Below are positions 3,206 to 18,639 of a stretch of 64,000 nt of DNA, in pieces. The stretch covers positions 1,312,001 to 1,376,000 of the forward strand of contig CAVWCF010000001.1 of the NCBI GenBank assembly GCA_963753435.1. Reading direction: 5' to 3'. Each line of letters begins with the position of its first letter. Position 1 is the first letter of the stretch. The DNA is from an uncultured Actinomycetota bacterium (GTDB lineage Bacteria; Actinomycetota; Actinomycetes; CAVWCF01). A program made the translations under genes and the position numbers. The notes beneath the pieces are model-generated. The model made no database searches and was not told the origin of the DNA. It saw nothing but the letters and a program-made list of their open reading frames with translations.

Positions 3206-3237
3206 CTGAGTCACCCTAGACGTCGGTGCGGACATGA

Positions 3238-3330
3238 AGGGACCCCCCGCGCACCCGGCAGAGCCCACTGACCCTTGCTGCCTTCCGGCCCTGGGGGATT
3301 GGGCGGGGTGCCGCCGCACGGGGGGTCGGT
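3238..3330 (-). ncRNA. ffs: signal recognition particle RNA (4.5S)
   Basis: Reverse strand has CCAGGGCCGGAAGGCAGCAAGGG (helix 8 with GGAA loop) in a long hairpin closed by GACCCCCCG/CGGGGGGTC; directly upstream of dnaX; ends approximate. Confidence 0.95.
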
Positions 3331-15815: not shown

Positions 15816-16346
15816 TCAGCGGGAGTAGACCGGCGCGATAACCGCACGCGCGAGCGTGTGGAAGGTCAATTGAAAGCCGACCGCGGCGGCGCGCGCATCC
15901 CTGCCGACCCCCAGTGACTCACTGTCCACGGCGTGTACGGCGAACAGGTATCGGTGCGGGCGGTCGCCCGGCGGTGGGGCGCTGCCGCCGTATCCGCCGT
16001 TGCCGAAGTCGGTTGGGACGTGGAAGGCCCCGGCTGGCAGTCCACCGCCGTCAGCAGCACCGGCGCCGCGCGCCAGCTCGGTGACGGAAACCGGGATGTC
16101 GACTGCGAGCCAGTGCCACCAGCCGCAAGCCGTCGGCGCATCCGGGTCGAAGCAGGTCACCGTGAAGGACCTCGTCGCCGCCGGGAAGCCAGACCAGGCC
16201 AGATGCGGGGACTGGTTGCCACCGTCAAGGACGAACTCCTGGCCCAGTTGTGCGCCGTCGACAACGTCGTCGCTGACAACCGAGAAGGCGCCGACCGGAG
16301 GGAGCAGTTCGTAGGGGTTCGGTGCCACCGGTCGCTGCAGATTCAC
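15816..16346 (-). CDS. YbhB/YbcL (PEBP, Raf kinase inhibitor-like) protein
   Basis: TCFDPDAPT..WWHW, GSAPPPGDRPHRY; GGAGG RBS. Confidence 0.92.
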   Translation of the reverse strand: MNLQRPVAPNPYELLPPVGAFSVVSDDVVDGAQLGQEFVLDGGNQSPHLAWSGFPAATRSFTVTCFDPDAPTACGWWHWLAVDIPVSVTELARGAGAADGGGLPAGAFHVPTDFGNGGYGGSAPPPGDRPHRYLFAVHAVDSESLGVGRDARAAAVGFQLTFHTLARAVIAPVYSR

Positions 16347-16361: not shown

Positions 16362-16568
16362 ATAGGTAGCGGGGCCCCTCCACGTATGAGGTGCAGGGGC
16401 CCCGCTGTGCCGGATCTCCGGCGGTGAGTTGGGCTTGCGCCCGCTCTTCCGCCCGAGGCCGCGGCCTCGGCTGACGCGAACCCTGCGGATAACCGTCCGG
16501 GTTTCCCCGGAGGTTCCCCCTCACCGTTCCGACCTAAGTCTTCTGGTGCGGTCCCGCCGTCAGGCGAT
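16362..16568 (-). ncRNA. candidate structured ncRNA A (family not recognised)
   Basis: Downstream of a promoter-like motif; nested helices CGGUGAG/CUCACCG and UCCGC/GCGGA, GAAA and GCAA tetraloop hairpins; ends in CUCAUAC-loop hairpin; paralog at 17860-18030. Confidence 0.7.
16368..16406. repeat. conserved-loop hairpin copy 1
   Basis: AGCGGGGCCCCTCCAC-GTATGAG-GTGCAGGGGCCCCGCT. Confidence 0.9.
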
Positions 16569-16572
16569 GGGA

Positions 16573-16605
16573 GATTTCTAGGGGCTACCGGTCGATGCAC
16601 GCAAG
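16573..16605 (-). promoter_or_regulatory. putative promoter of ncRNA A
   Basis: TTGCGT-N18-TAGAAATC on minus strand; same spacing as 18035-18067. Confidence 0.65.
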
Positions 16606-16636
16606 GGGTCCGGAACAAGAAATTCCGATGAATCTC

Positions 16637-16713
16637 GTATCCACACTCTTGTCCACACGGCGCCTCGCATGTGGCATTGGTTCCTCCACATCGAGCCCAC
16701 AGCGTCATCAACA
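16637..16713. promoter_or_regulatory. DnaA-box-like array A
   Basis: GTATCCACA 16637, TTGTCCACA 16649 (exact Streptomyces-type box), TCCTCCACA 16682, GAGCCCACA 16693, TCATCAACA 16705. Confidence 0.6.
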
Positions 16714-16807
16714 AGCGGGTCGTACTCGGTTCGGCGTCGATCGTGACGAGACGCAGGCACCGTGTGTCGCTGCCAGGTTGGTCAAGCCGGTGCGGGCATT
16801 CTGATCC

Positions 16808-16842
16808 CCAGGCCCCTCCAGGTATGAGCTGGAGGGGCCTGG
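16808..16842. repeat. conserved-loop hairpin copy 2 (solo)
   Basis: CCAGGCCCCTCCAG-GTATGAG-CTGGAGGGGCCTGG, perfect 14-bp stem. Confidence 0.9.
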
Positions 16843-16869
16843 CTAGTCCGCAACTCTTACCCTGCCGTT

Positions 16870-17829
16870 GTGAGCAATCTCGAGTCACGCCCGGCGGAGA
16901 CCGACTGCCACAGCGACGCGACCGGCGCTGCGGAGACTCTGGCTCCACGCGAGGTGCCGCTGGGTGGACCGCGAGCACTGACCGTTCGCCGCACCCTTCC
17001 CCACCGTGACCGTCGCATGGTCGGGGCTTGGTGCTTCGTGGACCACTACGGCCCGGACTCGGTACACGACGGTGGAATGTTCGTTCCCCCGCACCCGCAC
17101 ACGGGACTGCAGACCGTTTCGTGGTTGGTCTCCGGTGAGGTGCTGCACCACGACAGCCTTGGTTCCGAACAACTGATCCGACCAGGCCAGTTGAACCTGA
17201 TGACGGCCGGCCGTGGCATCGCACACGCCGAGGTGACACCGGCCGGTAGCACCGAGCAGTTGCACGGGGTGCAGTTGTGGGTGGCCCTACCCGGCACCGC
17301 CCGCGACACCGCCCCCGCCTTCGAGCACCACGCCGAACTGCCGACTGTGGGCCTGCCCGGGTGCGTGGCCACCGTCATTGCCGGCGATTTCGCTCGCGTG
17401 CAGTCGACGGCCACGACGTTCACCGACCTGCTGGGGGTGGAACTCGACCTCGCTGCCGGGGCTGACCTGGACGTCCCAGTTCGGCCCGAACACGAGCACG
17501 CTTTGCTCGCGCTGGATGAGGACGTGGCGATCGGAACGGCAACCGTGCCCCGCGGCGCCCTGCACTACCTACCCCCGGGGCCGGATGTGATTCGAGTGCG
17601 CAGCCGGACGGCATCCCGGGTGCTCCTGCTCGGCGGGCTTCCATTCGACGAGACCGTCGTCATGTGGTGGAACTTCCTCGGCACCGATCACGACTCGATC
17701 GCCGCTGCCCGTAAGGACTGGGAGGCAGCCAGCCCACGGTTCGGCGAGGTGCCGGGATACGACTCCCGGCTGGCTGCACCCGCGTTGCCGGGGACCCGGC
17801 TCAAGGCCAGGGGCCGAAAGCGGAACTAG
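16870..17829 (+). CDS. pirin family protein
   Basis: VGAWCFVDHYGP, PPHPHTGLQTVSW, MTAGRGIAHAE, LHGVQLWVALP. Confidence 0.95.
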   Translation: MSNLESRPAETDCHSDATGAAETLAPREVPLGGPRALTVRRTLPHRDRRMVGAWCFVDHYGPDSVHDGGMFVPPHPHTGLQTVSWLVSGEVLHHDSLGSEQLIRPGQLNLMTAGRGIAHAEVTPAGSTEQLHGVQLWVALPGTARDTAPAFEHHAELPTVGLPGCVATVIAGDFARVQSTATTFTDLLGVELDLAAGADLDVPVRPEHEHALLALDEDVAIGTATVPRGALHYLPPGPDVIRVRSRTASRVLLLGGLPFDETVVMWWNFLGTDHDSIAAARKDWEAASPRFGEVPGYDSRLAAPALPGTRLKARGRKRN

Positions 17830-17859
17830 ATAGGAAAAGCCCAATCACGCCCGCTCAAC

Positions 17860-18030
17860 AAAAGGTAAGGCCCCTCCAAGTATGAGTTGGAGGGGCCTTA
17901 CTTTCGCGGCTTGCGCCACTGCTTCCGCTTCCAATACCCCCTGGCCGGATCCCTCCGGGCCGAGGCCCTTCCGGTTCTTGCCAGTCCCTTCAGCCGAGGC
18001 CTTCGGGTTTGGTGCACCTTCCGAGGAAGT
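17860..18030 (-). ncRNA. candidate structured ncRNA B (paralog of A)
   Basis: 5' hairpin then GCACCA, CUGG/CCAG and CCGGA/UCCGG helices, GGC-GCAA-GCC hairpin, CUCAUAC-loop hairpin plus U-tract. Confidence 0.7.
17865..17901. terminator. conserved-loop hairpin copy 3, probable bidirectional terminator
   Basis: GTAAGGCCCCTCCAA-GTATGAG-TTGGAGGGGCCTTAC flanked by AAAAG and TTT. Confidence 0.85.
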
Positions 18031-18034
18031 AGCC

Positions 18035-18067
18035 GATTTCTATCCCCTGCGGCGGAGGTAGGGCAAG
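18035..18067 (-). promoter_or_regulatory. putative promoter of ncRNA B
   Basis: TTGCCC-N18-TAGAAATC on minus strand. Confidence 0.65.
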
Positions 18068-18098
18068 ACCTTTGGAGCAAGTTCTTGCTCCCGACGGG

Positions 18099-18163
18099 AA
18101 ATCCCCAATGTCATACACAGCAATCCAGGGCATATCCCCATCATGTCCACAGCTTGATGCACA
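18099..18163. promoter_or_regulatory. DnaA-box-like array B
   Basis: AAATCCCCA 18099, TCATACACA 18111, ATATCCCCA 18132, ATGTCCACA 18143, TGATGCACA 18155. Confidence 0.5.
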
Positions 18164-18205: not shown

Positions 18206-18242
18206 GGTGGGCCCGAACCAGCGTTAACTGGCTCGGGCCCAC
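18206..18242 (-). terminator. hairpin downstream of 100-aa gene
   Basis: GTGGGCCCGA..CCAG/CTGG..TCGGGCCCAC inverted repeat 17 nt after the stop. Confidence 0.6.
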
Positions 18243-18259
18243 TCGGAGTCTGCAGTCGA

Positions 18260-18562
18260 CTACTTGGTCTTGGTCACTGAGGTGAACGCCCCCGTGACTA
18301 GCGTGAAACCGTCCTTGGCGACCTTGACGCTGCCCGCCGCGATCGAGTCGATCGTGCCGGTGATTCCGGTTGCCATCTTCTGGGTGCCCTCCCGGACACC
18401 GTCGGTGGTCTCAGCGGAGACGCCCAGGCCCGACAGGACCGTGAACGGGATCTCCATAGCCGCCAGGCCGGTCTTCTCGACCGCCCCCATGCCCTGACGG
18501 AAGATTCCTAGGAACGCCTGGTCGGCGCTGGTGCTGCTCTTCTGCTTCGTGCTGGTGGCCAT
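18260..18562 (-). CDS. hypothetical 100-aa amphipathic protein
   Basis: Strong AAGGGAGGT RBS, ATG, biased codons, own terminator. Confidence 0.8.
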   Translation of the reverse strand: MATSTKQKSSTSADQAFLGIFRQGMGAVEKTGLAAMEIPFTVLSGLGVSAETTDGVREGTQKMATGITGTIDSIAAGSVKVAKDGFTLVTGAFTSVTKTK

Positions 18563-18639
18563 GACGCCACCTCCCTTTCTTTGCGGCGGCTTCGGGCCGC
18601 CGGTGGTGGTTCCTTGCAGTGCCTAGTGAACCACGTTGA

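Follow-up and report, generated by a model that had tools for sequence, protein, structure and literature searches.

A window of 64,000 nucleotides (nt) from an uncultured Actinomycetota bacterium (assembly GCA_963753435.1, contig CAVWCF010000001.1, positions 1,312,001 to 1,376,000) contains a pirin gene with an intergenic space on either side, and both spaces have the same layout on the minus strand: an upstream array, a promoter-like sequence, a body and a 3' hairpin. An initial annotation, made from the letters of the window, took the two spaces to hold paralogous structured RNAs, here termed units A and B. The locus raises the question of whether such units are genuine RNA genes and, if they are, what switches them on and what their product does. 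Comparison with other genomes indicates that there is a real, widespread and uncatalogued family of RNA genes with a distinctive DnaA-type promoter, and A and B are two divergent tandem copies of this family, accompanied by the likely relic of a third. The genome from which the window was taken, referred to below as the source genome, comprises 2.17 Mb and is 98% complete.

The RNA gene family

A 21-letter pattern of the 3' hairpin was matched at at least 122 loci in a genome collection and at least 120 metagenome loci, and the 80 genome matches listed, all of them titled Actinomycetota, include Streptosporangiaceae, Frankiaceae, Jatrophihabitantaceae, Jiangellaceae, Propionibacteriaceae, Geodermatophilaceae and Ornithinibacter. 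A relaxed form of the pattern was found in 93 of 301 Actinomycetes genomes, compared with 1 of 301 for the reversed control, at one to four copies per carrier genome, and the stems of these matches covary perfectly except in two non-pairing chance matches. Tallies of the relaxed pattern per family range from 12/12 and 13/14 down to 0/15 (G036 is counted in them as one genome only), and the strict pattern missed two genomes of the same family as the source genome (G001 and G002), whose stem is a variant. A covariance model built from 65 typical members matched 39 of 101 genomes of the class and, under strict filters, 0 of 90 genomes besides the source genome in a phylum-wide sample. There was no true match in the searched families marked by scr5239 and Ms1, which were read as Streptomyces and Mycobacterium types; absence from these searched genomes may explain why the family has escaped notice, and its carriers in other families include genomes that are complete or nearly so. 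The strict hairpin pattern had 0 matches in viral, phage and plasmid collections, the relaxed pattern hit four viral contigs with model scores of 0-30 bits, and the RNA was not matched in plasmids and phages with the queries used.

Among 239 unique hairpin matches, 148 have 330 nt of upstream sequence, and a common promoter stands upstream of 124 of these and on the opposite side of 0 of 147. A search that began from the promoter gave 14 loci with two or more boxes, which have the same stem downstream in 12 cases, a shorter variant of it in one and the end of the contig in one; the broader promoter-first tally of 85/201 is not used as a count, since many of its matches are a recurring coding stretch. 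Hairpin and promoter predict each other, as the promoter-first search leads to the same stem with loops that are new.

A typical member of about 190 nt begins with a long 5' stem that leads into a three-way junction with two GNRA hairpins, followed by a second long GNRA-capped hairpin and then the 3' hairpin. The initial annotation had set homologs with covarying helices as a test of its proposal, and such homologs were found: in an alignment of 74 distinct members 86.8% of the cells are paired (75.2% when shuffled, 35-47% when slid), two-sided changes occur at 64 of 68 pairs, and the top pairs by mutual information coincide with the helices. G-U outnumbers A-C in the paired columns (527 against 151), and a T-rich tail follows on the sense side far more often than on the other (77% versus 13% of 295), which argues that the RNA is made from the predicted strand and ends at a terminator. 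The cores vary greatly in length (207 cores, 93-634 nt, median 153 nt) and about 69% of their nucleotides are paired; GNRA makes up 77% of their hairpin loops compared with 3.6% in shuffles, and the number of such loops rises with core length (rho 0.49). The RNA is likely non-coding; a small open reading frame (ORF) as the product was rejected, since a closed ORF of 10 codons is absent from 133 of the 207 cores. One family (f16; L312, L354 and others) has very long members of about 580 nt or more, with the loop CUCAUGC, and its genomes carry an additional bare hairpin at a separate site. A 71-nt element that ends in a GCAA hairpin, present in three copies in G220 (L026) and also in two related genomes (L031 and G049), is possibly associated with an insertion sequence.

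Rfam offers no name for these RNAs. In the covariance scan that the initial annotation had proposed, no Rfam 15 family reached the gathering threshold over A or B, and an E-value scan of the two regions returned six chance matches, the best with an E-value of 1.3; the RNA in 12 homolog loci was likewise without a match. The earlier proposal of an uncatalogued family of free-standing RNA genes, each with its own predicted promoter and terminator, is supported by these results. There is little doubt that the family members are real RNA genes. Their novelty would rest on architecture together with the failure of the membership tests described below.

The promoter and its DnaA-type boxes

The -35 and -10 elements of the family promoter are offset by 23 or 24 nt, and none of 215 family promoters has T at -7 (A in 177, C in 38). 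Over 90% of actinobacterial promoters have a T at this position (PMC10232725), and its absence suggests that the family promoter is weak and likely activator-dependent, or else that a different sigma factor reads it. At 10-30 nt upstream of the -35 element the sequence is A-rich, and further upstream are boxes with the consensus TGTGGA(T/C)A (TGTGGAYA). A box in the sense orientation is present at 109 of 120 promoters, compared with 15 of 120 for the reverse orientation and 6 of 444 in the background. The boxes peak at -41, -52, -63, -73, -83, -94, -105 and -116, with up to eight in phase; they are separated by 11 bp (75 gaps) or 12 bp (72 gaps), and the distance from the proximal box to the -10 is 64-66 or 75-77 nt in 144 of 163 cases. 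E. coli DnaA prefers pairs of boxes 2-3 bp apart (PMC11317965), which is the same gap as a spacing of 11-12 bp, and the family arrays do consist of oriC-type boxes in such pairs.

The consensus equals that of the boxes at the oriC, dnaA, dnaB, crgA and nrdR sites of the source genome. When the genome was scanned with a box matrix trained on other loci, the top 11 clusters included the dnaA promoter, the gap between dnaA and dnaN, a site 3' of crgA, the region upstream of dnaB, and the array of unit A, which ranked sixth; the array of unit B fell outside the top 16. DnaA sites mapped in mycobacteria are oriC, rpmH-dnaA, dnaB, Rv0010c-Rv0011c and Rv3843c-RVnc0040 (PMC7738170), and four of these five have counterparts among the top 11 clusters. 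The boxes are most probably bound by DnaA. Further clusters in the source genome are found at C5:198970, C1:539630 and C1:1422413. From the translations, these three presumably lie upstream of an M48-peptidase-like gene (the top score of the genome), nrdR and yidC, respectively.

Five genomes have a family locus and dnaA on one contig, at distances of 91, 208, 383 and 395 kb and 1.3 Mb; a replication origin was rejected, as the loci are not adjacent to dnaA. The initial annotation had listed a cell-cycle-linked regulator among the possible roles, and such a link is likely, now by way of the DnaA-type boxes.

Units A and B in the window

Unit A would be transcribed from the minus strand. Its phased array of DnaA-box-like sequences (16637..16713) has box starts at 16713, 16701, 16690, 16657 and 16645, of which the box at 16657 matches the consensus in full. 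The predicted promoter (16574..16636), which fits the family profile, contains an A/T-rich stretch, the -35 TTG at 16604 and the -10 TAGAAA(T) at 16580. The RNA body (16407..16568) has a predicted start at 16568 and folds into a multibranch core with GAAA and GCAA tetraloops, and the 3' hairpin (16368..16406) has the loop CUCAUAC and a weak U tail. Unit B, also on the minus strand, repeats this order with an array at 18099..18163 (box starts 18163, 18151, 18140, 18119 and 18107) whose boxes are more degenerate than those of A, a predicted promoter at 18036..18098 (-35 TTG at 18066, -10 TAGAAA(T) at 18042), a purine-rich and weakly folded body at 17905..18030 with a predicted start at 18030, and a 3' hairpin at 17858..17904 with the loop CUCAUAC followed by a U tract. 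Counted from the -35 TTG and allowing up to two mismatches, the boxes lie at -41, -53, -86, -97 and -109 in A and at -41, -53, -74, -85 and -97 in B, positions that obey the family phase. The upstream array noted for both units in the initial annotation is present, and its reading is refined to that of a phased DnaA-box-like array.

The other features claimed for the two units fared unevenly. The motif CTTGC-N20-TAGAAATC is found at 16605-16573 and at 18067-18035, with no third match in the 2.17-Mb genome, and the A at 16568 and at 18030, predicted as start sites, are where they were said to be. The shared words GCACCA, GGCGCAAGCC, CCGGA..UCCGG and GGCCUCGG and the named helices are all in the sequence as claimed; as signals common to the family, the words do not hold, since GCACCA..GGCGCAAGCC occurs only at or below the control level in 301 genomes. 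The cores of A and B align no better than chance (local alignment score 26; shuffles 21.5 +/- 3.4, P 0.11). BLAST of unit A against 61 relatives gave nothing beyond short chance matches and one hairpin. That both units are structured is true of the whole units, which are more stable than shuffles (z -5.4 for A, z -3.9 for B); without the terminator the core of A remains so (z -3.35) and the core of B does not (z 0.07). The membership of A and B in the family rests on array, promoter and hairpin, because their scores with the covariance model (56.3 bits for A, 58.1 for B) come mostly from the hairpin.

The same 3' hairpin does follow both units, as stated earlier, but its copies in the source genome are three, all within 1.5 kb. 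The third, hairpin M (16808..16842 or, more narrowly, 16811-16839; minus strand, 51.7 bits), lies between the array of A and the start of pirin; it is bare, with neither promoter nor body upstream, and is likely the relic of a middle unit whose place is now taken by the pirin gene. In G007 (L311), G053 (L314) and G082 (L321), two or three complete units stand in tandem, each unit with its own box array and promoter and with an RNA body of 245-345 nt; the relic status of M was deduced from the arrays in G007 and G053. The pirin gene (Pirin and Pirin_C domains; 16870..17829, plus strand) lies between hairpins M and B, and hairpin B may also terminate pirin transcription from the opposite side. 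Downstream of A is a ybhB/PEBP gene (15816..16346, minus strand), which is a local neighbour only. Further along the window, at 18260-18562 on the minus strand, there is an ORF of 100 aa that has no Pfam match and its own hairpin terminator; RNA-library contigs from two runs cover about 18232-18606 with a depth of up to 9.

The proposed link to ybhB or pirin was not upheld, since the neighbours of the family vary: 589 neighbouring ORFs fall into 307 clusters. A ybhB query found no match in G001 and G002, the two genomes of the same family, in a search that had no positive control. At one recurrent location, upstream of dapA-rnj genes, the full RNA gene is present at five loci (L040, L078, L083, L100 and L195), and at four others (L043, L054, L076 and L211) there is a bare hairpin only, beside a divergent gene for a FecCD-type transporter. 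By eye, the leader of this transporter gene resembles a cobalamin riboswitch, and the RNA body has apparently been replaced at the dapA-rnj loci that carry the bare hairpin.

Proposed function and relation to known systems

The layout of the family suggests a chain of events in which DnaA would occupy the phased array before a weak promoter and, acting across the A-tract, would activate the promoter rather than repress it. Activation is favoured because the boxes are upstream of the A-tract and the -35, at a constant distance and never over the core promoter. The array recalls the Fis sites at ribosomal RNA (rRNA) promoters, which Fis activates in a comparable layout. The RNA would be made from the predicted start, end at the hairpin, accumulate with DnaA activity and work by its shape, its output likely following the replication state of the cell. 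Its repeated GNRA hairpins could form a multivalent protein-binding scaffold or sponge that would sequester a protein partner in step with DnaA activity. This partner could be RNA polymerase, DnaA itself or a different factor in replication or growth. Action on a protein is preferred to pairing with mRNA because the body is variable and largely paired, acquires added modules, and ends in a 3' loop that changes. The whole chain, that is, a DnaA-activated, protein-binding structured RNA that acts in trans by shape and not by pairing with mRNA, has about an even chance of being correct. A broader proposal places the family, as its branch in Actinobacteria, in a class of DnaA-activated structured RNAs that has so far gone unrecognised: at a promoter of the stable-RNA type a DnaA array would serve as activator, and a modular GNRA-hairpin RNA would bind a protein of replication or transcription and act back on initiation. 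This proposal is tentative and doubtful.

The outputs that DnaA is known to have away from the origin are genes for proteins and silent sites of titration. A gene for a non-coding RNA that stands behind a rigid, phased array for DnaA would be an output of a new kind; about a third of the Actinomycetes genomes sampled carry it, in as many as four copies. The family would allow a direct test of whether an RNA couples the initiation of replication to other processes. If the broader proposal is true, bacteria have an RNA-based arm of replication control.

Several observations weigh against this account. No promoter was recognised by pattern at 24 of the 148 hairpins, and among seven further hairpin-selected loci six have no promoter with two or more boxes. 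The covariation must be read with the knowledge that the alignment (A2) was fitted to a model that already holds 36 of the pairs, that members were chosen by their hairpin, and that kinship inflates covariation. For A and B themselves, most of the model score comes from the hairpin (56 and 58 bits, against 52 for the bare hairpin), and the core of B is not stable. The box matrix is not specific, as two of its top 11 clusters lie in coding DNA, and both the binding of DnaA and its sign, activation, are predictions. The protein partners proposed above are candidates. Evidence on transcription comes from contigs of eight runs, six of RNA and two of DNA, which are unstranded and shallow and come from a rare organism, with DNA carry-over possible; the RNA runs account for small shares of the window. 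No discrete or abundant transcript was seen in them. Contigs over A from four runs, with a depth of 2-5.5, extend beyond the predicted start or end, and the cover of pirin is equally thin; one RNA contig stops at 16366, at the base of hairpin A. At B the RNA contigs reach the hairpin and not the body, a gap in coverage that is uninformative.

It is possible, though unlikely, that the working part is instead the DNA, a site for DnaA titration or nucleotide exchange that is tuned by transcription directed away from it, the RNA being a stable but inert by-product. Sites of this kind include datA, DARS and the box clusters of Bacillus and Streptomyces. Arrays of as many as eight boxes, RNA bodies that vary in sequence and in length (about 150-630 nt), and the position of four of the five measurable loci at 0.1-0.4 Mb from dnaA would all suit such a site, and sites of this kind are treated as sinks in PMC7738170. 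The fixed distance between the proximal box and the -10, however, fits the activation of a promoter, the three-way junction and internal-loop helices have been kept by compensatory change, and in one complete genome the locus is 1.3 Mb from dnaA.

Alternatively, DnaA could control a small RNA that acts by base pairing, with its seed for an mRNA in the 3' loop of 7 nt or in some other exposed patch, or with that loop as a mimic of the anticodon loop of tRNA-Met. Most lineages have CUCAUAC or CUCAUGC as the loop, on a stem that covaries, its A-to-G changes could be tolerated as G-U pairs, and with its CAU it fits the anticodon-loop pattern YUNNNRN. The same stem in promoter-selected members bears CUCGUAA, CCCUUAC, CCCUUAU, UGCCUAG and one 9-nt loop, so neither a fixed seed nor an anticodon has been kept, which weakens Met-anticodon mimicry and a fixed loop seed alike; moreover, the exact complement of the loop is not in the rRNA operon, and about 69% of the core is taken up by pairing. 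We regard this reading as quite unlikely. A role for CCUCC as an anti-Shine-Dalgarno sequence was rejected because the inner stem is variable.

A decidedly improbable variant keeps the RNA gene and assigns the boxes to another factor, either an OmpR-type regulator such as MtrA, or MraZ, or has DnaA repress the promoter. OmpR-type regulators bind 11-bp direct repeats, a spacing also seen here, but the identity of the box with the boxes at oriC, dnaA and the other sites of the source genome speaks for DnaA. An MraZ operator was rejected: the mraZ promoter has a GTGG repeat with an exact 10-bp period over the core promoter, to which the box is unmatched, whereas the family arrays have 11-12 bp gaps and remain upstream of the -35, a position that also argues against repression.

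Two further readings, a cis-acting leader or attenuator for the gene that follows and the remnant of a small mobile or REP-like element, are together very improbable. In their favour, hairpin A ends 22 nt before the start of ybhB on the same strand and has a weak U tail, the neighbours of the family are variable, and both tandem copies and bare hairpins are known. Against a riboswitch or leader, the downstream gene is on the same strand in 37 cases and on the opposite strand in 50 of 87, and the downstream genes share no function. Against a mobile element, no recurrent transposase was found among the 26 commonest neighbour clusters, plasmids and phages were without a match to the queries used apart from the four viral contigs, and each genome has merely one to four copies (three in the source genome), whereas REP, TRIT and MITE repeats number tens to hundreds. 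TRIT, with 147 copies at gene ends in Mycobacterium only (PMC3152330), is likewise a sequence-conserved terminator-like hairpin of Actinobacteria; the family hairpin differs in copy number, in mostly ending one RNA family, and in not being found in the searched Ms1-positive family.

The weakest alternative, the suggestion of the initial annotation that the RNAs are sponges for a GGA-binding protein in the manner of CsrB and RsmZ, is barely credible and largely refuted: seven GGA do precede each terminator and the family resembles CsrB, RsmY and RsmZ in its repeated hairpin modules, whose number varies with length, but the count is not above chance (P 0.14 for A, 0.12 for B; 1.16-fold in the family), the loops are GNRA and not ANGGA, and CsrA was not found in the 98%-complete source genome (the control was found in 3 of 14 genomes).

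The statement that A and B are not signal recognition particle (SRP) RNA, transfer-messenger RNA (tmRNA), RNase P, 6C or Ms1 is borne out by model scans and, for Ms1, also by locus. The SRP RNA of the source genome is at 3235-3330 of the window and its tmRNA on contig C2, both apart from A and B, and the RNase P model has no match at A or B. 6C RNA (RF01066), with its two C-rich loops, likewise has none there, and its sole match in the source genome is elsewhere and below the cut-off. 6S RNA is a single long rod with a central bubble, and the family consensus is instead a three-way junction followed by a second hairpin and a terminator. Ms1 was rejected because the HAD-IB genes of the source genome are outside the window (C1:1283081 and 1204058); the Ms1 model RF02566 has no match in that genome, although it is narrow and misses four of five Mycobacterium-type genomes. 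A gap of about 300 nt downstream of a HAD-IB hydrolase gene and before a Fic-like gene (L360:2330-2660, plus strand; G000 C1 at about 1,282,900-1,284,250) is a separate Ms1 candidate by synteny. Upstream of the HAD-IB hydrolase gene, at L360:1320-1400 on the minus strand, there is a C-rich double hairpin that resembles 6C RNA in its motifs. Neither of these was reported by the Rfam searches of the source genome.

Ms1/scr3559 and CoRP are nonetheless the closest in kind, being free-standing structured actinobacterial RNAs of 200-500 nt that bind a protein, RNA polymerase (PMC9130861, PMC11077062). Ms1 is tied to a HAD-hydrolase gene (PMC9130861), whereas the family has no fixed neighbour; by analogy, the family may work like Ms1 or CoRP without being a member of either. 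The word DnaA does not occur in the RNA immunoprecipitation sequencing paper (PMC11077062), the family loop motif was not found in the supplement of the Ms1 paper, which gives coordinates only, and no description of the family was found in a literature that consisted mostly of open papers and left outside the supplements of PMC11109978 and PMC5737381, which may bear on novelty.

Among cell-cycle RNAs, CcnA of Caulobacter is alike in its length of about 180 nt, its own promoter and its link to a cell-cycle master regulator, but its gene is part of the origin, CtrA controls it, and the RNA acts by pairing with the leaders of mRNAs (PMC8959179). The A/B family, in contrast, lies at 0.09-1.3 Mb from dnaA, carries boxes of the DnaA type upstream and does not have a constant seed.

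Paired boxes are a feature of known DnaA-regulated promoters such as that of B. subtilis sda. In the E. coli regulon, too, box pairs 2-3 bp apart lie upstream of the promoter (PMC11317965). The known targets are protein genes, whereas the gene behind the boxes here, as many as eight of them in phase, is non-coding.

A DnaA site beside a small RNA is known from the mycobacterial region Rv3843c-RVnc0040, and RVnc0040 is presumably MTS2975, in agreement with the flanking genes. MTS2975 is a Northern-verified RNA that is reduced in stationary phase (PMC3207917) and was reported missing from M. avium (PMC3774663). Homology to it is unsupported: at 17 syntenic Mycobacteriaceae DUF4328 loci the boxes are 9 and 12 bp apart and face a rhodanese-like operon, and 0 of 17 have a match to the family promoter or model. 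Upstream of the rhodanese-like/DUF4328 genes (L415-L432) a pair of boxes spaced by 9 bp is present at 14 of the 17 loci, a third box follows after 12 bp at 10 of 17, and this cluster is likely the counterpart of the DnaA site mapped in the Rv3843c region. As a mapped actinobacterial DnaA site with the same type of box beside a small RNA (PMC7738170), the Rv3843c-RVnc0040 site is the nearest experimental precedent for the family, by analogy and not by homology.

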